Source of the DNA: an uncultured bacterium
Lineage (GTDB): Bacteria; Patescibacteriota; Minisyncoccia; Phycocordibacterales; Phycocordibacteraceae
Length of the DNA: 64,000 bases
Direction: 5' to 3'
Assembly (NCBI GenBank): GCA_937879955.1
Contig: CALFMK010000001.1
Location: forward strand, 506,356-570,355
The notes under the pieces were generated by a model, which saw only the letters and a program-made list of their open reading frames with translations, had not been told where the DNA came from and ran no database searches. The position numbers were made by a program, and so were the translations under genes. Below, in pieces: positions 14,230 to 62,643 of this stretch; position 1 is the stretch's first letter, and every line of letters begins with the position of its first letter.

Positions 14230-14237
14230 ATAATCAG

Positions 14238-14309
14238 TGCTCTCAGTAGGAATCGAACCTACATCTCAGGCTTCGGAGGCCTACGCTCTATCCATTGAGC
14301 TATGAGAGC
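14238..14309 (-). tRNA. tRNA-Arg (anticodon CCG)
   Basis: GCTCTCA/TGAGAGC acceptor, anticodon stem TAGGC/GCCTG, loop CTCCGAA. Confidence 0.85.
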
Positions 14310-14983
14310 GTGCGGCCAATTTCACGGCCGAGCGCTATGAGTTCTCGCTGAATAGCACTCGAAGCATAGTGCACATTGCAGATGCCCGCAAAGTTTTCGC
14401 GGTAATTCTTTCCCGTGCCACGAGGTTTTACGTACGGCTTCCAGAATTGCGATTTCGGAACCCCTAACTTCTTAGACCAGAAAGTAAGCACCTTGGCTTG
14501 GATATGAGTCTCGTGTATCTGGAGCGCGATGCGTATACGCGACTCATCTATGCTGTATGCGCGCCTGAGTAAGGTGAGGAAAAGAAGGGCGAGATCGGCA
14601 TCGGTGTTGGTGAACTTCAAATTTCCCTCCTGCTTTCCTCCTTCTGCCCAGTAGAGCATCGCGAGTAGGGCTTTATCAAGATTCATGTCACGCAGATTCA
14701 GCGCGTCCGCTACTTTCTTTGCGCTGATTTCGGCGTTAGCGATCCGTTCGAGGCGCTTTCTTCGTATCGTTACGACTGCGAGCTTCCGGGCACTTCTCAA
14801 GTGACGCAGCTGACGTTCTGGATCTCGAGGTATCGCTTCGCGCGTAGCCCATAGCGAAAGGGTGCTCTTCGGAACTCCAAGGCGGGTGCATATTTCTGAA
14901 TAGGGAACCTTCTTCCTTAGCAGTGCCATTGCTTCCGACTTCACTTCGTCAGACCATCTGTTCATATTATAGATTATATACAA
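14300..14983 (-). CDS. HTH-domain protein with LAGLIDADG-like motif (putative homing-endonuclease-like, lower-GC gene)
   Basis: 227 aa; N-terminal HTH (EICTRLGVPKSTLSLW); LAMLYWAEGG resembles LAGLIDADG; about 50% GC versus about 65% flanks; stop overlaps 5' end of tRNA-Arg. Confidence 0.4.
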   Translation of the reverse strand: MYIIYNMNRWSDEVKSEAMALLRKKVPYSEICTRLGVPKSTLSLWATREAIPRDPERQLRHLRSARKLAVVTIRRKRLERIANAEISAKKVADALNLRDMNLDKALLAMLYWAEGGKQEGNLKFTNTDADLALLFLTLLRRAYSIDESRIRIALQIHETHIQAKVLTFWSKKLGVPKSQFWKPYVKPRGTGKNYRENFAGICNVHYASSAIQRELIALGREIGRTLS

Positions 14984-15026
14984 TATAAGAGTATCTATCT
15001 ATAATTGCTTTTCTGGTCATCACTAA

Positions 15027-15056
15027 AGCAAAAGCGCCCGCACGGGCGCTTTTGCT
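15027..15056. terminator. terminator hairpin
   Basis: GCAAAAGCGCCCGCACGGGCGCTTTTGC. Confidence 0.7.
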
Positions 15057-15062
15057 TATGTG

Positions 15063-15134
15063 TGCTCTCGGATGGAATCGAACCATCATTTTAACTTCCG
15101 CAAAGTTATGTCCTATCCATTGAACGACGAGAGC
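15063..15134 (-). tRNA. tRNA-Arg (anticodon GCG, unusual)
   Basis: GCTCTCG/CGAGAGC acceptor, anticodon stem TAACT/AGTTA, loop TTGCGGA (G37 consistent with CGN-reading tRNA). Confidence 0.7.
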
Positions 15135-15195
15135 AGGTCCGTTCCTCGGGAATGAGGGCTGGGTAGAACGACTCTACCGCACCAGGGCCCGTAAA

Positions 15196-15669
15196 TCAAA
15201 GGCGCAGCAGGTCGATGATGCGGTCGACGGCCGATTCGTCATGCTTTCCTTCCTCGATGTGGTCGGCGAAGAACTCGTACACCTCGAGCGGATCGGGGCC
15301 GACGATAGGGATGAGGAGATGCGGCGCGAACACCTTGCGAGTCCGGAGCGAGAGGGCAGGAGGCATCTTCGGGTCGAGGTACTCGAGCACCGAGAACGAG
15401 ATGATGCTGTCGTACTCGTAGAGGTTGTCGTCGATCATCACGCCGTCCTCCGTTATCCGGAACTGATGGAGACGCGGGCGCTTCAGGGTAGAGAGCGCGA
15501 GCGTGCCGCTCGCCGCGAGGATGAGGAGCGCGAGGATGACGTTGCCGAAGAGCGCGCTCGCGATCGCGGACGCGAGCGCCACGATGCCGAGCGACCAGTA
15601 CCAGTCAGCGCTCTTCTCCTCGAAGAGGTATCCGACCGCTTCCCATTCGAAGAAGACCGCGCGTGCCAT
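15196..15669 (-). CDS. hypothetical membrane protein
   Basis: two TM helices after MARAVFFEWE start; ORF extends to 15705. Confidence 0.5.
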   Translation of the reverse strand: MARAVFFEWEAVGYLFEEKSADWYWSLGIVALASAIASALFGNVILALLILAASGTLALSTLKRPRLHQFRITEDGVMIDDNLYEYDSIISFSVLEYLDPKMPPALSLRTRKVFAPHLLIPIVGPDPLEVYEFFADHIEEGKHDESAVDRIIDLLRL

Positions 15670-15732
15670 AGATAGGGGAATGATAGCACTCGTACGCGCG
15701 TCCATGGACGCGAAGTCACACGTTCTCCTGTG

Positions 15733-15817
15733 CGGACGGGGTGGGATTCGAACCCACGAGACCTCTCGGCCTGGCTGTTTTCAAGACAGCTCGTTTCGAC
15801 CACTCACGCACCCGTCC
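15733..15817 (-). tRNA. tRNA-Ser (anticodon TGA)
   Basis: type II tRNA with long variable arm, anticodon loop CTTGAAA, acceptor GGACGGG/CCCGTCC. Confidence 0.85.
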
Positions 15818-15830
15818 GTATCTATGAGTT

Positions 15831-16112
15831 TTACGCGTCCGTCGCGCTTGGCGCAACCGCAGGTGCCGGCGCGACGTAGGACTGCTTGTCCTTCCGGAAG
15901 GCGAAGAGATACACGAGCTCGAGTATGCCGAGCGTATTGAGGACGAGCACCGCCACGAACCAGTACGGCTGCCTGTTCCTCGCGGCGTACCAGAGCGCGA
16001 ACGCCTTGATGACGGTGGTCCAGATCGTGAGGAAGATGAATACGGTCAGGAGCGCGACGTGCGGTATGGCAGATATGAAAGGAAGGCTCTCGATGCTCGG
16101 GTACGGGATCAT
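15831..16112 (-). CDS. small membrane protein (93 aa)
   Basis: internal start MIPYPSIESLPF; two TM helices; upstream part of ORF would overlap ruvX. Confidence 0.45.
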   Translation of the reverse strand: MIPYPSIESLPFISAIPHVALLTVFIFLTIWTTVIKAFALWYAARNRQPYWFVAVLVLNTLGILELVYLFAFRKDKQSYVAPAPAVAPSATDA

Positions 16113-16160
16113 ATGCGCCCGAGTGTAGCATGCAGCCCGCAGGCACTGTACGATGCATCC

Positions 16161-16559
16161 ATGCGCTACATGGGCATCGATTTCGGCACGAAGAAGGTGG
16201 GCATCGCGTTTTCTGACGAGGCCGGCCAGATGGGATTCCCGTACGGGATCATCCCGAACGACGGACGGCTCATCGACGAGATCCTTGCGCTCATCGAGCG
16301 CAAGGAGGTAGGCGCCGTTGTGATCGGGGAATCTCGCGATTATGCGGGCAACGAGAACGCGGTGGCCAAGCACGCGAAGGAGTTCGCGATGCTGCTCGAG
16401 AGACGCTCGGGCCTGCGCGCCGCGTTCGAGCCGGAGATGCTCACCACCCAGGAGGCCCGACGCGACTTCGAGGGTGTGCGCGTTGCCGGGAGTCCGAACG
16501 TCGACGCGTCGGCCGCCGCCCTCATCCTTACCAGCTACCTATCCCGTACCCATGCCTGA
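16161..16559 (+). CDS. ruvX: Holliday junction resolvase-like protein RuvX/YqgF
   Basis: MGIDFGTKKVGIAFSD RNase-H-like motif, C-terminal DASAAALILTSYL as in YqgF. Confidence 0.8.
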   Translation: MRYMGIDFGTKKVGIAFSDEAGQMGFPYGIIPNDGRLIDEILALIERKEVGAVVIGESRDYAGNENAVAKHAKEFAMLLERRSGLRAAFEPEMLTTQEARRDFEGVRVAGSPNVDASAAALILTSYLSRTHA

Positions 16560-16941
16560 AGAGATTATTGAAGAGAAGCCTGAGGAGGTCGTCGAAGAGT
16601 CATCGACGCCGCGCATCTCCATAGACGAGTTCGCGAAGATCAAGGTGCAGGTGGGCACCGTCCTGTCCGCCGCGCTCGTACCCGAGACCGAGAAGCTGCT
16701 CCGCCTTTCGGTCGACTTCGGCGAGCCGAAAGGTCCGCGCCAGATCGTGTCGGGCATCCGCGCGTACGTGGAGGAGCCTGAGGACCTCGTCGGGCGCCAG
16801 CTCGCGTTCGTGACGAACCTCGCGCCGCGGAAGATCAAGGGGTTCGAGTCCGACGGCATGCTGTTCGCGGTGGGGGAGGCGGATGCGTTCGCGTTCCTCA
16901 CGCCTGACCGTCCGATCCCTCCTGGTACGTCCGCGCACTAG
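16552..16941 (+). CDS. tRNA-binding domain protein (Myf/CsaA-like, MetRS C-terminal-type domain)
   Basis: 129 aa; FAKIKVQVGTVLSAALVPETEKLLRLSVDFGE OB-fold tRNA-binding signature; start overlaps ruvX stop. Confidence 0.7.
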   Translation: MPEEIIEEKPEEVVEESSTPRISIDEFAKIKVQVGTVLSAALVPETEKLLRLSVDFGEPKGPRQIVSGIRAYVEEPEDLVGRQLAFVTNLAPRKIKGFESDGMLFAVGEADAFAFLTPDRPIPPGTSAH

Positions 16942-16988
16942 GCCCTCTTTCGTTGACCCCTCTGGTCGGGGCGGATACTGTTATTTAC

Positions 16989-17060
16989 GCCCCTATAGCT
17001 TAATGGATAAAGCTGCGGACTTCTAAGCCGTCGATCTTGGTTCGATTCCAGGTGGGGGCA
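16989..17060 (+). tRNA. tRNA-Arg (anticodon TCT)
   Basis: acceptor GCCCCTA/TGGGGGC, T-loop TTCGATT, loop CTTCTAA; anticodon stem has one mismatch so lower confidence. Confidence 0.65.
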
Positions 17061-17080
17061 CATTGTAGCGGCTCCGGTAT

Positions 17081-17575
17081 ATGATTAGGCGAGTGAACGA
17101 ATCGTCTCTCAACAGCCGGGGCTTCACCCTCATCGAGCTCCTCGTCGTGATCGCGATCATCGGCATCCTCTCGAGCGTCGTGCTCGCGTCCTTGAACAAC
17201 GCTCGCGCGAAGGCTCGTGACGCGGAGCGGAAGTCCGACATGCGTGCGGTGCTGAACGCGCTCGACCTCTACGCGTTCGACAATGGCGGGAAGTACCCGA
17301 TCGCGGCGAACCCGGGTACCGGCTGCGCAGGCGCTCGTCCAGGGTACTGTCTCGGTGACAGCAACGTGGTCGCGGCGCTCGTCCCGCAGTATCTCCCGGA
17401 GATGCCGCACGATCCGCTGTATGCGAACACGACGAACGACTATCTGTATCAGCAACTGAACCAGAGTGTGTACATCCTCCTCGCGAAGAGCGAGAAGCTC
17501 AACAGCTGGTGCGTGCCGCCATCGTCAGCGATGTACGTAGGGCATGCCTGGTTGACCTCCTATCCCTCCTGCTAG
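17081..17575 (+). CDS. type IV pilin / pseudopilin-like protein
   Basis: GFTLIELLVVIAIIGILSSVVLASL prepilin N-terminus; Cys pairs in C-terminal region. Confidence 0.75.
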   Translation: MIRRVNESSLNSRGFTLIELLVVIAIIGILSSVVLASLNNARAKARDAERKSDMRAVLNALDLYAFDNGGKYPIAANPGTGCAGARPGYCLGDSNVVAALVPQYLPEMPHDPLYANTTNDYLYQQLNQSVYILLAKSEKLNSWCVPPSSAMYVGHAWLTSYPSC

Positions 17576-17622
17576 CCTCCTGGGTTCATCTTGAGGACTG
17601 CAGGTGCTACAGTCCTACAGAC

Positions 17623-17707
17623 GCGCACGTGGCGGAATTGGTATACGCGTACGTCTCAGAAGCGTATGGAGCAATCCTTGGAGGTTCAAGTCCTCTCGTG
17701 CGCACCA
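17623..17707 (+). tRNA. tRNA-Leu (anticodon CAG), CCA encoded
   Basis: type II tRNA, anticodon stem TACGT/GCGTA loop CTCAGAA, T-arm GGAGGTTCAAGTCCTCT, 3' ACCA. Confidence 0.8.
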
Positions 17708-17708
17708 C

Positions 17709-17740
17709 GGAGAAAGGCCGGCGATATGCCGGCCTTTCTC
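17709..17740. terminator. perfect 13-bp stem hairpin between convergent tRNA genes
   Basis: GAGAAAGGCCGGC-GATA-TGCCGGCCTTTCTC. Confidence 0.6.
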
Positions 17741-17748
17741 GTTTCCGG

Positions 17749-17821
17749 TGCGCGATGCAAGACTCGAACTTGCGACCATCCCGGTGTAAACGGGGTGCTC
17801 TACCAACTGAGCTAATCGCGC
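17749..17821 (-). tRNA. tRNA-Val (anticodon TAC)
   Basis: GCGCGAT/ATCGCGC acceptor, anticodon stem CCCCG/CGGGA loop TTTACAC. Confidence 0.85.
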
Positions 17822-20239: not shown

Positions 20240-20782
20240 ATGAACGCAGTCCACACACCAGTCAAAACCGAAGAGCGCACCCAGCTCGGCATCCGCCCGG
20301 GCGATACCGTTCGCGTCCACCAGAAGGTGATCGAGAAGGGGAAGACGCGCCTCCAGGTATTCGAGGGCCTCGTCCTCGCCGTGAAGCACGGCACCGAGGC
20401 AGGCGCGACCTTCACGGTCCGCGCCATGATGTCCGGCATCGGCGTCGAGAAGATCTTCCCGCTCTACAGCCCGATCATCGACAAGATCGACATCGTCCGC
20501 CGCTCTAAGGTCCGCCGCGCGAAGCTCTACTTCATCCGCGAGAAGGTCGCCCGCGAGGTACGCCGCCAGCTCCGCAACATGCGCATGGTCAACCTCTCCA
20601 CGGCAGACTTCAAGGAAGAGGAGAAGCCGGAGGCTCCTATCGAGGAGGAGGTCGTCGCGACCGACGCCGCAGATGTCACCGTCGAGGTGGACACCGTCCC
20701 TGAGGGAGACCAGGATGTCGTCACTTCGGAGGAGACCGCCGCAGAGGAGGCTCGCGAGGAGAAGAAGAACGAGGAGGCGTAA
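20240..20782 (+). CDS. rplS: 50S ribosomal protein L19 with acidic C-terminal extension
   Basis: N-terminal 120 aa match L19 ([26 protein letters not shown]); extra 60 aa E/D-rich tail. Confidence 0.85.
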
Positions 20783-20803
20783 GCCACTCTTTCGCACGAG
20801 GAT

Positions 20804-20828
20804 GAAGAGCCGGCCATGCCGGCTCTTC
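20804..20828. terminator. terminator hairpin
   Basis: GAAGAGCCGGCC-ATG-CCGGCTCTTC followed by T-rich tract. Confidence 0.65.
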
Positions 20829-20865
20829 ATATTTTCATTACCGACGCAGCGTATGCTTCGGGTAT

Positions 20866-21549
20866 ATGGGACTGCGCGGGCCGAAGCCTAAGAGGCAGGA
20901 GATTAAATGGACCGAGGATTTCGCCTACGCGGTCGGGCTACTCGCGACCGACGGCTGCCTCTCTTCTGACGGGAGACATCTCTCGCTTGTATCGAAGGAT
21001 CGCGAGCAGGTAGAGGCAATCAAGAGGTGTCTCGGCTTAGGGGCGGGCATACGTCGTCATGATGCCGGAGTCGCTGGTAAGGACCGGGCATACTTTCGCA
21101 TCCAGTGGGGAGACGTGATTCTGTACGACTTCCTAAGGTCCATAGGGATCAGGGAGCGGAAATCTCTCACCATCGGCGCACTCCAGATACCGGACGAATA
21201 CTTCTTCGATTTCCTGCGAGGCTCGTTCGACGGGGATGGAAGCTTCTACAGCTATCGCGATCCTCGATGGAGCACGAGCTTCATGATCTATACGAGCTTC
21301 GCATCAGCCAGCCATGCCCATGTATGTTGGCTCCGCGAGACCGTACGACGCCTCGCTGGAATCGTCGGACACGTGTCTGTCAGCAAGAGGGGGAATGGCA
21401 TGTACAGCCTCCGGTACGCCAAGCGGGAATCGTTGCAGCTGCTCGCCCGGCTGTACTCTAAGGCCGGCTCGGCCTGCCTTGCGAGGAAAAGATTGAAAAT
21501 AGAGCGCAGTTTGCGTATAGTAGGCGAGTTGCTGCCGGCTGGCAGCTAG
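20866..21549 (+). CDS. double-motif LAGLIDADG homing endonuclease (free-standing)
   Basis: two LAGLIDADG motifs: FAYAVGLLATDGCLSSDG and FFDFLRGSFDGDGSFYSY; 227 aa; GC slightly below flanks; abuts tRNA-Leu. Confidence 0.8.
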   Translation: MGLRGPKPKRQEIKWTEDFAYAVGLLATDGCLSSDGRHLSLVSKDREQVEAIKRCLGLGAGIRRHDAGVAGKDRAYFRIQWGDVILYDFLRSIGIRERKSLTIGALQIPDEYFFDFLRGSFDGDGSFYSYRDPRWSTSFMIYTSFASASHAHVCWLRETVRRLAGIVGHVSVSKRGNGMYSLRYAKRESLQLLARLYSKAGSACLARKRLKIERSLRIVGELLPAGS

Positions 21550-21554
21550 AACGA

Positions 21555-21636
21555 GCCCGGGTGTCGAAATTGGTAGACGAGCATCCTTGAGGTGGATGTG
21601 CCGAAAGGCGTGGAGGTTCAAGTCCTCTCTCGGGCA
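21555..21636 (+). tRNA. tRNA-Leu (anticodon GAG)
   Basis: type II tRNA, anticodon stem CATCC/GGATG loop TTGAGGT, T-arm GGAGGTTCAAGTCCTCT. Confidence 0.8.
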
Positions 21637-21747
21637 CACTGTAAGGTAATCGAAGCAAAAGGGACTTCTTGTGGAGTCCCTTTTGCCGTCCAGGATAGAG
21701 ACAGGGACTCACCATTTCCCGGTTCTCGTGCTATAACCCTTCTACAT

Positions 21748-21821
21748 GGCGGCCTTAGCTCAGTTGGTAGAGCATCGGTTTGTGGTACCGACGGTCATGG
21801 GTTCGAGCCCCATAGGTCGCC
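21748..21821 (+). tRNA. tRNA-His (anticodon GTG) with genome-encoded G-1
   Basis: extra 5' G pairing with discriminator C, anticodon loop TTGTGGT, T-loop TTCGAGC. Confidence 0.85.
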
Positions 21822-21830
21822 CCTAGTTAT

Positions 21831-22232
21831 ATGAAGTCCTTCCTCGAAGAGTTCAAGAAGTTCGCGCTCCGCGGCAACGCCGTCGACCTCGCGATCGGCG
21901 TCGTGATCGGCGGGGCCTTCACGGCCATCACGAACTCGCTCGTGACGAACATCATCACGCCGCCTCTGTCGCTCCTGACCCGCGGCATCAACTTCGCGGA
22001 CCTCGCGTTCCAGATCCCGACCACGGACGCCGAGATCCAGTACGGCCTCTTCGTCCAGTCCGTGATCACCTTCGTCATCACGGCGTTCGCGCTCTTCCTC
22101 CTCGTGAAGCTCATCAATCACCTCACGATGCTCGCGCGCAGGGACCAGGAGCAAGGCAAGACCGAGCCTGCCGCGAAGAGTCCCGAGGTTATGGTGCTCG
22201 AGGAGATCCGCGACGCCCTCAAGAAGCAATAG
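21831..22232 (+). CDS. mscL: large-conductance mechanosensitive channel MscL
   Basis: 133 aa; FALRGNAVDLAIGVVIGGAFTAI signature. Confidence 0.85.
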   Translation: MKSFLEEFKKFALRGNAVDLAIGVVIGGAFTAITNSLVTNIITPPLSLLTRGINFADLAFQIPTTDAEIQYGLFVQSVITFVITAFALFLLVKLINHLTMLARRDQEQGKTEPAAKSPEVMVLEEIRDALKKQ

Positions 22233-58812: not shown

Positions 58813-59594
58813 CCTCTTACGTGTTAAAGACCAAGAAATTAGTAACCAAACGGAGCGGATAAGCGAAAGCCGTAAGGCTCTCGACACCGCCCCGCACGGG
58901 GCTTTTTTCTTGAAAGGGCACGCAGGTCGTTGACAGACGAATATGCAAATAGGTAATCAACGCCGCTAGGCGTGGACGTTCGCGTCCATGGCTGGCGGAT
59001 TGAATATTGCAGAATCACACAATCGTTAGAAAGTGGTGTTCAGGTTTCCGCACAGGAGACATGAAGGGTGCACGGTGGATGCCTAGGCTTGCGACAGCGA
59101 TGAAGGACGCGACTAATCAGCGAAATGCTTCGGGGAGGCGATTTGTAGCCTTTGATCCGGAGGTGTCCGAATGGGGAAACCCAACCAGCAATGGTTACCT
59201 CTCAATATTTTGTAGAGGAGCGAACCCAGGGAAGTGAAACATCTCAGTACCTGGAGGAATAGAAAACAACAACGAGTTGCGTTCCGTCTATTCGATGCTT
59301 CGAGTAGATGGAACGCGACTCTCGTGATTCCCTAAGTAGCGGCGAGCGAAACGGGAATAGCCCAAACCTGATACTTCGGTATCAGGGGTTGTAGGGCGGA
59401 AGCGCCGTACTTGATACGGCACAAGTTACAAAAGTTCTACATAGCAGAAGAAGCTGGAAAGCTTCGCCCCAGAGGGTAATGGCCCCGTATGCGAAATGTA
59501 AAACCCTTGTGAGCTTCCGATCCTGAGTAGTTCGAGACACGAATAGCTCGGATGAATCTGCCGGAACTAACCGGTAAGGCTAAATATGTCGCAG

Positions 59595-59640
<46 letters not shown>

Positions 59641-61079
59641 GAGAGGGGAGTGAAATAGAACTGAAACCGTGTACTTACAAAGGGTTAGGGTGGGCTCCGG
59701 TCCATCCTAGCGTGCCTATTGAAGAATGAGCCTGCGAGTTTATGTATGTCGCTTCGGCTAAGCCCGTTACGGGGCGGAGCCACAGGGAAACCGAGTGTTA
59801 ATAGCGCGTCCGTGTCATACATAAGACCCGAAGCCAGGTGAGCTTGCCATGAGCAGGGTGAAGTCTGTCGAAAGACAGATGGAGGCCCGAACCCGTATGT
59901 CGTACAACGCATTGGGATGACTTGTGGTAAGGAGTGAAAAGCTAATCGAACCTGGTAATAGCTGGTTCTCTCCGAAACATCTTTTGGGATGGCGTCGCGT
60001 GGTCCCCTTGGGGGTAGAGCACTGGAAGGGATGAACAGGGAGAAATCTCGTCATTCCTATCAAACTCCGAATACCAAGGATTATGAGCGCGGCAGTTAGA
60101 CGGTGGGGGCGAAGCTCCACACGTCGAAGGGGGAAGAGCCCTGGATCGCCAGTTAAGGTCCCTAAATCTACGCTAAGTACAACTTAAGGAAGTGAGGATT
60201 CATTGACAATGAGGATGTTGGCTTAGAAGCAGCCACCATTTAAAGAAAGCGTAACAGCTCACTCATCGAGAGTCCTTGCGCCGAAGATGATCGGGGTTAA
60301 GCGTAGTACCGAAACTGCGGGAATGGAGATCCTCCGGGATCTCCATTCGGTAGGAGAGCGTTCCGTTCTGCTGTGAAGCTAAAGGGGTGACCCATAGTGG
60401 AGCGTACGGAAGTGAGAATGCAGGCACAAGTAACCACAATGCGGGTGAGAACCCCGCACGTCGAAAGAACGAGGTTTCCTCAGCTATGACGATCAACTGA
60501 GGGTTAGTCGGGCCTTAGGGGATGGCGAAAGCCGCACCTGATGGACACAGGGTTAATATTCCCTGACCGATCATATGTGCGATGGAGTGACGGATTGCTG
60601 TATCTATGGCCCATTATTGGATTTGGGTTGGTGCCGTGAGGAGGCTTGGTAGGTAAATCCGCCAGGCGCTACTCCGAGCGGAAAAACAATGTTCTCCTTC
60701 GGGGGAGCAGAGCATAGAGAGCGCGGTTCCAAGAAAAACTTCTAAGCTTCAGCATATGACGACCGTACCGGAAACCGACACAGGTGTTCAGGTCGAGTAG
60801 ACTAAGACGAACGAGTGAGAGGTCCTCAAGGAACTCGGCAAAAAAGCGGCCGTAAGTTAGCGATAAGGCCTGCCCCTAGCAATAGGGGCCGCAGCGAAAG
60901 ATTTTCTGCCAACTGTTTACCAAAAACACAGCTCCCTGCGAACTCGTAAGAGGATGTATAGGGGGTGACGCCTGACCAATGCCGGAAGGTCAAGCAGGGA
61001 CGGTACATTGATTTCGATTGATGTGCTAGGCCCTATAAGCCCCGGTGAATGTCGGCGATAACTATAATCGTCCTAAGGT

Positions 61080-61275
61080 CCTGCATCTGAGCGATCGGAT
61101 GCAGGACGGATTGGGGCGGTTATAGGAGACCGTAAACAGTTCTGAGAAGATTACGTCATCAAAAGCTACCTCTTCAGACCGGAAGGTCTGTTGAATCCGC
61201 GACTCACATGAGAGGCCATACGTCGCGCCCCTAGCAATAGGGTGAAGATATGGTCCTACGTTAAAGGAATAGTAG
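61080..61275 (+). mobile_element. putative group I intron (about 196 nt, no ORF) in 23S domain IV
   Basis: interrupts conserved CCUAAGGU|AGCG; 5' exon ends in U, insert ends in G, contains GAAGATATGGTCC resembling group I P7/P9.0 consensus AAGAUAUAGUCC. Confidence 0.5.
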
Positions 61276-61936
61276 AGCGTAATTCCTTGTCTGGTAAGTT
61301 CAGACGTGCACGAATGGCGTAATGAGTGGAAAACTGTCTCGAGGACTTGCTCGGTGAAAATGCAATACCGGTGAAGATGCCGGTTACCTGTAGTTAGACG
61401 AAAAGACCCCAGGAGCTTTACTACAGCTTGGTATTGGGGTTGTGTGTCGTATGCGTAGCATAGGTGGGAGACTTTGAAGCGTACCTCTTGGGGTACGTGG
61501 AGTCGCCAGTGAAATACCACTCTTACGATGTGCAACTTCTAACCCGCGTAAGAACTACGTGGGGACAGTGCCTGGCGGGTAGTTTTGGTGGGGCGCTATC
61601 CTCCTAAAAAGTAACGGAGGAGTCTATTAAGGTTGGCTAGGCGCGAATGGAAACCGTGCCGATAGTGTAATGGCACAAGCCAGCTTAACTGTAAGGGGTA
61701 CATCCCGCACAGATGCGAAAGCAGAGCATAGTGAACCGATGGTCCGCCTTAGATGCGGCCAGAGATTAACGGATAAAAGTTACCCTGGGGATAACAGGCT
61801 AGTTCCGCCCAAGCGTCCATAGCGACGGCGGAGTTCGGCACCTCGATGTCGGCTCACCTTAGCGCGGGGCTGGAGAAGGTCCCAAGCGTATGGCTGTTCG
61901 CCATTTAAAAAGGTACGCGAGCTGGGTTCAAACCGT

Positions 61937-62249
61937 GTGGGGCTCGAATCTTCGGATTCGTTCCTCACACCGTTTGAATCCCTTCGAGATTTCTGTTGTC
62001 AGAATTCGAAAAAGTGCGAAAGAATGAGAGTGAATGTCTTTTCGTCTTGAAACTAAGATAGAACCAACCACGACACGGCGGCGTGTTCCTGAAAGGGGAC
62101 ACGGGAAGCTGACTGGTATCGGTGGAACCCTACTCGAAAGAGGGGCGACACCGAGGGAAGCCGAAAGGCGCCCGTAGAGACTGAACGTCAGACACCCGGA
62201 AGGGTGATATTACAGTCCGATCCTCCGAGTAATCGGAGCAAACGAAATG
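61937..62249 (+). mobile_element. putative group I intron (about 313 nt, no ORF) in 23S domain V at the I-CreI/I-CeuI-type site
   Basis: interrupts conserved AACGU|CGUGAGACAG; ends in G; contains GATATTACAGTCCGATCC resembling AAGAUAUAGUCGGACC of group I introns. Confidence 0.5.
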
Positions 62250-62643
62250 CGTGAGACAGGTTGGTCTCCTATCTACTACAGGCGTTGATTCTTGAGGAGA
62301 CTTGCCCCTAGTACGAGAGGACCGGGGTGAACTGACCTCTGGTCTACGAGCTGTCACGCCAGTGGCATCGCTCGGTAGCTATGTCGGGATGTGATAACTG
62401 CTGAAAGCATATAAGCGGGAAGCACGCTCCAAGATTAGGAATCGTTATGAGGCTCCTAGAAGATGACTAGGTTGATAGGCTTTAGATGGAAGCGCAGTAA
62501 TGCGTTGAGTCGAGAAGTACTAATATGCCCAGACTTCTGTGCGGAACTCTGTATGTCACATCTGATGATGCGTGACTGCAATATTGAATGGAGATCCTAT
62601 TTGCATATTCGTCCGTCTGCGAAGACGGAGAAAACGTGCGTAT

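Follow-up and report, generated by a model that had tools for sequence, protein, structure and literature searches.

How does a gene for a homing endonuclease come to stand alone beside a tRNA gene on a bacterial chromosome? To our knowledge, the homing endonucleases recorded in cellular bacteria are mainly those of introns, inteins and ribosomal RNA (rRNA) insertions; the free-standing kind is typical of phages and comes from different families of nucleases. The question is raised by a 64,000-nucleotide (nt) stretch of DNA from an uncultured bacterium of the Patescibacteriota (assembly GCA_937879955.1, contig CALFMK010000001.1, positions 506,356 to 570,355; this whole stretch is called the window below), in which an open reading frame (ORF) with two LAGLIDADG motifs lies between rplS and a tRNA-Leu(GAG) gene. 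An earlier reading of these letters, here the original prediction, had described the ORF as a free-standing homing endonuclease gene (HEG), had offered as possible roles a selfish gene targeting the tRNA locus, a domesticated protein or a trans-acting mobility factor for ORF-less introns in the 23S rRNA gene, and had proposed profile searches, a check of the catalytic acidic residues and a comparison of presence and absence in related genomes. Our comparison, which covered about 170 related loci overall, suggests that the ORF belongs to a mobile and apparently undescribed bacterial family that sits just upstream of tRNA-Leu genes, often with a candidate promoter for that tRNA in its final codons. 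We consider it likely that the ORF is an active, selfish, free-standing HEG that spreads when it cuts chromosomes lacking the cassette, in or beside their tRNA-Leu gene, and is copied in during repair.

The gene is an ATG-initiated ORF of 227 amino acids (aa), and it and its immediate surroundings are laid out as follows.

20240..20782, plus strand: rplS, encoding ribosomal protein L19, the conserved left flank of the insertion site (translation and tblastn synteny).
20802..20830, plus strand: Rho-independent terminator-like hairpin 3′ of rplS; its stem has 13 bp and a T tail follows (terminator scan).
20836..20865, plus strand: spacer upstream of the ORF, corresponding by position only to the place where relatives carry a partial tRNA-Leu(GAG) copy and the HEG promoter.
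20866..21549, plus strand: free-standing gene for a predicted double-motif LAGLIDADG homing endonuclease (ORF, Pfam, AlphaFold2, Foldseek, homologs, and the ratio of nonsynonymous to synonymous substitution rates, dN/dS).
20929..20955, plus strand: LAGLIDADG motif 1, AVGLLATDG, with predicted catalytic D29 (motif read and conservation).
21214..21240, plus strand: LAGLIDADG motif 2, LRGSFDGDG, with predicted catalytic D124 (motif read and conservation).
21493..21521, plus strand: candidate sigma-70-type promoter, TTGAAA-N17-TATAGT, within ORF codons 210–219 and 33 nt 5′ of tRNA-Leu(GAG) (promoter scan).
21555..21637, plus strand: tRNA-Leu(GAG), the invariant right flank and presumptive endonuclease target (ARAGORN and Rfam).
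21749..21823, plus strand: tRNA-His(GTG), a neighbour outside the cassette.

The ORF stands alone, 3′ of the terminator, with neither an intron nor an intein around it; an Rfam scan of 20600..21950 returned the two tRNAs only and no intron RNA, even at an expectation value (E) of ≤ 1. The setting given in the original prediction was thereby borne out, from the two LAGLIDADG motifs and the rplS terminator to the position outside any intron or intein and the tRNA gene beginning 6 nt past the stop codon (5 nt intervene between the ORF stop codon and tRNA-Leu(GAG)). The adjacency of tRNA-His also stood, with a measured gap of 111 nt in place of 110, but this tRNA is not linked to the ORF, because its distance from tRNA-Leu varies from about 30 nt to 6 kb among related loci.

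The predicted protein matched the Pfam family LAGLIDADG_3 (PF14528) over two stretches at 30.4 bits, above the curated cutoff of 22.5, whereas LAGLIDADG_1 (PF00961) remained below threshold (13.2 against a cutoff of 23.1). A search with NCBIfam profiles gave no match, and a phmmer search against solved structures was marginal, with I-Tsp061I (2dch) at E = 0.14. An AlphaFold2 model made with 24 homologs in the alignment (predicted local distance difference test score 89.3, predicted template-modelling (TM) score 0.86) predicts the repeated helix/strand order of two alpha-beta-beta-alpha-beta-beta-alpha domains. Foldseek likewise placed I-Tsp061I first among Protein Data Bank (PDB) structures (E = 1.9e-11, TM 0.65/0.72); the top PDB matches were all LAGLIDADG enzymes, 118 matches were found at E ≤ 0.001, and further matches included intein endonuclease domains, I-AniI, I-SceI and I-DmoI, together with the bI3 maturase and WhiA. 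The acidic residues at the motif ends, D29 and D124, are both kept: D29/G30 is invariant in 24 close homologs and at least 90% conserved across subfamilies, and D122-G123-D124-G125 does not vary, either within the close family or in any distant subfamily. These results confirmed the ORF product as an intact monomeric double-motif LAGLIDADG protein and, as judged from its sequence, a predicted endonuclease. Enzymes of this kind cleave double-stranded DNA site-specifically and leave 4-nt 3′ overhangs.

The ORF protein has 1,262 detectable homologs, nearly all of 215–245 aa, and Patescibacteria are the source of the few whose origin is named. When 1.84 billion cluster representatives were searched with a profile, 282 clusters (50% identity) were recovered at E ≤ 1e-30; at least 581 species-representative genomes encode a relative, so that the earlier remark on free-standing homing endonucleases being rare in bacteria understates the present family. 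We fetched 80 genome loci from among these species. tRNA-Leu(GAG) follows the ORF directly 3′ on the same strand in 77 of them, the other three comprising two odd ARAGORN calls at the same position and one contig edge, and the order rplS, ORF, tRNA-Leu(GAG) holds in 77–79 of the 80. The ORF begins 52–156 nt after rplS in almost all of these loci and its stop codon falls −44 to +46 nt from the tRNA; the neighbourhood past tRNA-Leu is variable. The ORF overlaps the tRNA gene by 10–44 nt in 16 of the 80 loci, and in seven loci (L023, L033, L041, L053, L060, L065 and L070) its stop is the TGA of U33-G34-A35 in the anticodon loop of tRNA-Leu(GAG). Conserved synteny at first suggested a core gene, an idea that was rejected after the RplS-anchored sampling described next; synteny cannot decide between a core gene and a mobile one, because homing always inserts at the same site.

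A metagenome scan anchored on RplS provided a sample that is independent of, and unbiased toward, the presence of the ORF. About 12 of its 63 loci were occupied, and the remaining 51 had a tRNA right after rplS. At these unoccupied loci the tRNA starts −35 to +150 nt from the rplS stop codon; the spacer between rplS and the tRNA measures 734–848 nt at the ten complete occupied loci, two more occupied loci being cut by contig ends. Both states occur near the window organism, with L081 and L082 occupied (84% and 79% RplS identity) and L151, L105 and L084 empty (77%, 73% and 72%), the latter with 1–29 nt between rplS and the tRNA.

About five of the sites counted as empty carry decayed remnants: L085 retains the last ~38 codons, flush against the tRNA, L154 retains ~31 N-terminal codons with D29 changed to N, and L096, L098 and L111 hold short relics of the ORF 3′ end. 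Additionally, a single nonsense codon interrupts three of the 80 full-length copies (L006, L010 and L018; TGA at codon 5, TAG replacing the invariant Q48, and TAA at codon 178). A coordinate artefact was considered and rejected for these stops, which are real single nonsense codons reflecting either very recent inactivation or low-coverage assembly errors. Since occupied, nonsense, remnant and empty loci were all found, all stages of an invasion-decay-loss cycle are sampled. A neighbour-joining tree of RplS from 60 taxa requires at least 9 gains or losses, compared with 11.9 when labels are shuffled, and remnant loci are often sister to occupied loci on this tree. At one locus whose own rplS/tRNA-Leu(GAG) site is empty, a paralog (L138:5858-6291, 44% identity over residues 6–149) lies ~600 nt 3′ of tRNA-Val(TAC), a possible second insertion site; the locus ends before the 3′ neighbour of the paralog.

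The divergence of the ORF is also decoupled from that of the genes around it. Pairwise distances of the two flanking host genes correlate with each other at r = 0.76, compared with 0.35 and 0.45 for the LAGLIDADG protein against the host genes, and the LAGLIDADG distance plateaus near 0.47 while the host distance spans 0.14 to 0.65. Individual pairs depart in both directions: host genes differ by 0.17 and the HEG by 0.49 between L027 and L040, and by 0.58 and 0.29, respectively, between L066 and L070. In aligned loci of close relatives, DNA identity drops from 85–93% in rplS to 41–55% in the ORF, returns to 70–90% over the last ~80 nt of the ORF and the tRNA, and then vanishes. The dN/dS of the ORF is about 0.11, compared with 0.07 for rplS and 0.09 for rluD, with dS near saturation. 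Because the protein is under purifying selection and diverges more than its flanks between neighbours but less at depth, exchange of cassette alleles at a fixed site appears to be the best explanation of the divergence pattern.

The association with tRNA-Leu extends to distant members of the family (30–44% identity), which lie directly 5′ of tRNA-Leu(GAG) in L226, of tRNA-Leu(CAA) in L227 and L228, and of tRNA-Leu(TAA) in L229 and L231; in L230 the gene sits beside an opposite-strand tRNA-Leu(CAG), and one further contig ends too early to tell. A subfamily of ~300-aa proteins that joins N-terminal helix-turn-helix (HTH) domains to the LAGLIDADG core numbers 553 members at E ≤ 1e-20, and in all five loci examined its gene lies 8–12 nt before, or overlaps, tRNA-Leu(CAA), with tRNA-Ala(GGC) following. 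The genomes concerned have 62–74% GC and carry chemotaxis and secretin genes, and their hosts are therefore not Patescibacteria. Remote phage LAGLIDADG genes showed no such association (0 of 65 loci with a tRNA within 500 nt downstream), and the vicinity of the homologs showed no similarity to an rRNA gene. Given that tRNA-Leu is the common denominator across the family, the tRNA-Leu gene is the most plausible target of the predicted endonuclease.

Two further observations concern the tRNA-Leu neighbourhoods. The HTH-bearing subfamily is represented by loci L227, L228 and L233–L237, and in L233, L236 and L237 the gene bordering it on the side away from the tRNA encodes a Type ISP restriction-modification enzyme (PF18135), a hint of a variable island at tRNA-Leu(CAA). 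The window also contains a tRNA cluster at 14237..17821, with tRNA-Arg(TCT), tRNA-Leu(CAG) and tRNA-Val(TAC) among others; the same cluster lies 1.5–4 kb 5′ of rplS in many related genomes (L002–L044), with varying orientation of tRNA-Val, and the tRNA-Leu(CAG) copy of the window has no adjacent LAGLIDADG gene.

In the explanation that we favour, the HEG cassette occupies the short gap between rplS and tRNA-Leu(GAG). We infer that the enzyme cleaves DNA, breaking both strands of a cassette-free chromosome within its tRNA-Leu(GAG) gene or next to it, that the cassette reaches such chromosomes by horizontal transfer, and that occupied genomes avoid cleavage of their own tRNA gene. Repair of the break would copy the cassette from the occupied allele, an 'intronless homing' of the kind known for the Seg and Mob genes of phage T4. 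Of the sequences at the site, only the tRNA gene is conserved enough to act as a cross-species target. Insertion would leave the tRNA uninterrupted and separate it from its former upstream sequence, with a replacement promoter (TTGAAA-N17-TATAGT) supplied from the last ten codons of the cassette itself, and in most relatives the HEG's own promoter would start transcription at the ATG to give a leaderless mRNA. The element would thus cycle from invasion through point inactivation and deletion to a promoter-bearing stub, and finally to complete absence, with alleles exchanged between lineages. Among the roles offered in the original prediction, a selfish gene targeting the tRNA locus is the one that gains support, from fixed-site polymorphism, decayed copies, apparent discordance with flanking host genes and retention of the catalytic residues.

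The anatomy of the cassette bears on the proposed replacement of the tRNA promoter. TTGAAA-N17-TATAGT at 21493..21521 is the sole promoter-like site that a promoter scan detected in 20600..21950, and a promoter matching at 10 or more of 12 positions occurs at the same place in 41 of 88 occupied loci, compared with none of 231 control windows inside ORFs. The remaining half of the loci differ in their C-terminal tail and show weaker promoter-like arrangements. The original prediction had noted neither this promoter nor the link to tRNA-Leu throughout the family. Across genomes of 30–61% GC, the codon for L210 is TTG in 77% (background 19%), that for R217 is CGT in 82% (background 13%) and that for I218 is ATA in 89% (background 33%), whereas the codons of nearby L205 and R207 follow background; the constraint therefore acts at the DNA level. 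Decayed sites retain exactly the piece with the embedded promoter. At the other end of the cassette, terminator hairpins equivalent to that of the window were seen in the rplS-to-ATG spacers of related occupied loci, whereas the 1–29 nt gap between rplS and the tRNA at the closest empty sites is too short for a hairpin. The cassette therefore seems to uncouple tRNA-Leu from rplS transcription.

The spacer upstream of the ORF carries further signals in relatives of the window organism. A strong −10 box ends 4–9 nt ahead of the start codon in 64 of 80 loci, with a distance of exactly 6 nt in 51, and as a control the same measure gave 1 of 75 for rplS and 6 of 62 for rluD; judging from this spacing, the HEG mRNA of most relatives would appear to be leaderless. 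Many spacers also hold AATTGGTAGACGCTAT..CTTGAGGT, a copy of tRNA-Leu(GAG) positions ~14–39 that includes the anticodon. Gapped local alignment of each spacer with the locus's own tRNA-Leu, run with shuffled controls, gave z > 3 in 35 of 73 loci and z > 5 in 18 of 73; it replaced a gapless fixed-column comparison (identity 0.32–0.34 against 0.26 shuffled) because of a 1-nt offset. The partial copy runs as far as the 3′ border of the anticodon loop (mode position 39), lacks tRNA positions 1–12 and, in its long form, runs directly into an extended −10 box (GGTGATATAAT). A search for a half-tRNA of this kind upstream of the gene in the distant subfamilies found none; the single apparent match was cross-similarity to a neighbouring tRNA-Cys.

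A separate short motif, TTGACAAA-TAAT (TTGACAAA(n)TAAT), stands in a constant register at −13 from tRNA-Leu(GAG) in 33 of 88 occupied loci, compared with 2.6 expected by chance, as surveyed over loci L001–L080, L102 and L116. The motif belongs to the coding sequence in some loci and lies outside it in others, occurs in the decayed L096 and L111 as well, and is absent from the window. Its geometry fits neither a −35 box nor a −10 box, a leader element or a half-site, and the idea that it substitutes for the embedded promoter was rejected, as it does not replace that promoter.

Several observations weigh against a selfish, mobile HEG. Repeated loss alone would also yield a patchy distribution, and the evidence for discordance is distance-based and comes from short, near-saturated proteins. 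Purifying selection of host-like strength and a promoter within the ORF would fit an acquired host role too. A vector for transfer between cells was not found: 2.9 million viral contigs contain no close relative, phage contigs holding only relatives of ≤ 35% identity, and a phage vector was accordingly rejected. The tRNA-Leu(GAG) of occupied genomes is intact, and a search for an immunity polymorphism gave no tRNA position that cleanly separates occupied from empty alleles. The differences seen were soft ones, namely at position 26 and in an anticodon-stem A-CTACC present in 22 of 51 empty and 7 of 88 occupied loci, which are confounded by phylogeny and behind which shared ancestry may lie; the upstream fragments are slightly closer to the tRNAs of empty sites. 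Finally, the window itself lacks some of the features of its relatives, as its own HEG −10 box is weak (TATGCT, 20852..20857, 8 nt before the ATG) and the half-tRNA is degenerate and not detectable in its spacer (z = −0.5, also missed by the fragment profile).

Some of these points would suit a domesticated LAGLIDADG protein kept by host selection, either as a WhiA-like regulator of tRNA-Leu transcription or as a factor acting on tRNA-Leu. Such a role would accommodate a dN/dS of about 0.11, as low as in the flanking host genes, the constant position and orientation beside tRNA-Leu across distant bacteria, the tRNA promoter inside the ORF, the fusion of one subfamily to HTH domains and the presence of WhiA among the fold matches. 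It sits poorly with a gene that is missing from most related loci, close relatives included, that is scattered over the host tree where it does occur, that is represented by independent decayed copies and nonsense mutants, and whose divergence is decoupled from that of host genes. WhiA-type domesticated domains have, moreover, lost the catalytic acidic residues, whereas the catalytic Asp residues are kept here. We therefore regard host domestication as unlikely, and the variant raised in the original prediction, a domesticated core gene with degenerate residues, was not upheld, given the absence from most related loci and the intact catalytic Asp residues. The half-tRNA invites yet another account, in which the cassette is the relic of an ORF-containing intron in the anticodon loop of tRNA-Leu(GAG), the intron RNA having been lost and the tRNA regenerated downstream with a half-tRNA left behind. 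The end point of the partial copy, which in 35 of 73 loci lies at the 3′ border of the anticodon loop, agrees with this account, as group I introns are known to occupy such loops in bacterial tRNAs (PMC3984707); even so, no intron-like RNA was detected in the cassette, the downstream tRNA is complete and canonical, the upstream fragment is without tRNA positions 1–12, and the distant subfamilies have no such fragment. An intron relic, which we consider very unlikely, would in any case describe the origin of the gene and not its present mode of action.

The remaining proposal of the original prediction, that the ORF serves as a trans-acting mobility factor for ORF-less 23S introns, starts from a real feature, and can be widened to a mobility factor or maturase for insertions without ORFs in this genome's 23S rRNA gene ('collaborative homing'). 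That gene (59050..62544) is 3495 nt long, for a model of 2925 positions, and so carries about 570 nt of insertions; an ORF of at least 90 aa is absent from its strand; LAGLIDADG enzymes in rRNA insertions are common in the phylum (PMC11270868), and I-AniI and the bI3 maturase are among the fold matches of the ORF protein. The 23S gene nevertheless matches no group I intron model, even at E ≤ 1, no rRNA-gene similarity was seen around the homologs, and presence or absence of the gene is a property of the rplS/tRNA-Leu site. With an address fixed at tRNA-Leu in hundreds of species, and tied to tRNA-Leu in the subfamilies of other bacteria too, a function in 23S mobility is extremely improbable, and this part of the original prediction found no support. 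Within the 23S gene, 61458..61526 also gave a match to c-di-GMP-II at E = 0.39, far below the gathering threshold, which is probably due to chance.

A selfish HEG that targets tRNA-Leu thus remains the explanation that we prefer, and it can be taken one step further. By exchanging the region upstream of an essential tRNA-Leu for a promoter within its own final codons, the element might have made its own 3′ end indispensable ('promoter capture'), and the protein, which would have to recognise the DNA of the tRNA-Leu gene, might double as a regulator, acting either on tRNA-Leu transcription or, with the half-tRNA as an operator, on its own leaderless mRNA. A homing endonuclease that acts at its own promoter is known in I-TevI. 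We put this extension forward tentatively and consider it doubtful; if true, it would describe a widespread selfish element partway to domestication at tRNA-Leu genes of several bacterial phyla.

Our results point to a large chromosomal family of free-standing LAGLIDADG genes, with at least 581 species in the Patescibacteria branch alone, that has made the 5′ flank of tRNA-Leu genes its niche, for several isoacceptors and in bacteria that are only distantly related. Should this be confirmed, the family would offer a natural system in which the invasion-decay-loss cycle can be followed in uncultivated bacteria with all stages sampled, a case of an essential tRNA promoter overprinted on the coding sequence of a selfish gene, and evidence of gene flow among ultra-small, host-dependent bacteria. 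It would also provide compact (~225 aa) monomeric meganuclease scaffolds whose targets are expected to lie in a well-conserved gene. For annotation, the family accounts for the recurrent 'hypothetical protein' beside tRNA-Leu and for the frequent contig breaks there. The full-text literature that we searched describes no bacterial LAGLIDADG family tied to tRNA-Leu, although most subscription journals lie outside this coverage and the absence is no proof. The enzyme class and the free-standing lifestyle are already known; what appears to be new is the dedicated address at tRNA-Leu, the overprinting of a promoter on coding sequence and the wide extent of the family.

These features set the family apart from each of the systems that it resembles. 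Domesticated proteins of the WhiA and HO type share with it the LAGLIDADG scaffold and a free-standing chromosomal gene, and one of the present subfamilies carries HTH domains as well; WhiA, however, is universally conserved in its clades, whereas the present family keeps its catalytic residues, is patchily distributed and includes decaying copies. Among the group I introns of tRNA genes, that of tRNA-fMet encodes I-Ssp6803I, which is of another nuclease family. Introns of this type, which occupy bacterial tRNA anticodon loops as in cyanobacterial tRNA-Leu(UAA) (PMC3984707), likewise exploit a tRNA gene as mobile elements, and the half-tRNA of the relatives ends at the anticodon loop, but the present cassette is without intron RNA, its tRNA is intact and its ORF lies outside the tRNA. 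The LAGLIDADG genes so far described in the phylum lie inside rRNA insertions (PMC11270868, PMC11809585). The enzymes of these Patescibacteria (candidate phyla radiation, CPR) insertions and of archaeal rRNA introns (I-Tsp061I, I-DmoI) have the same monomeric double-motif fold, I-Tsp061I being the best structural match despite remote sequence similarity (phmmer E = 0.14), and the Patescibacteria/CPR enzymes share with the present gene the host phylum and the targeting of a highly conserved RNA gene (PMC11270868). Unlike them, the present gene lies outside its putative target and outside any spliced or excised insertion, beside an uninterrupted tRNA. The closest parallel in lifestyle comes from the free-standing homing endonucleases SegA-G and MobE of T4-like phages, of which SegB sits among tRNA genes and cuts within them (PMC2988022, PMC13096335). 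In both cases the gene lies between other genes, with presumed cleavage of a conserved neighbour in element-free genomes and co-conversion of the flanks. The phage enzymes are GIY-YIG or HNH nucleases that reside in phage genomes and spread in co-infections, whereas the present gene encodes a LAGLIDADG protein, resides in bacterial chromosomes, and is the fixed partner of one tRNA species, the candidate promoter of which it carries within its own coding sequence.

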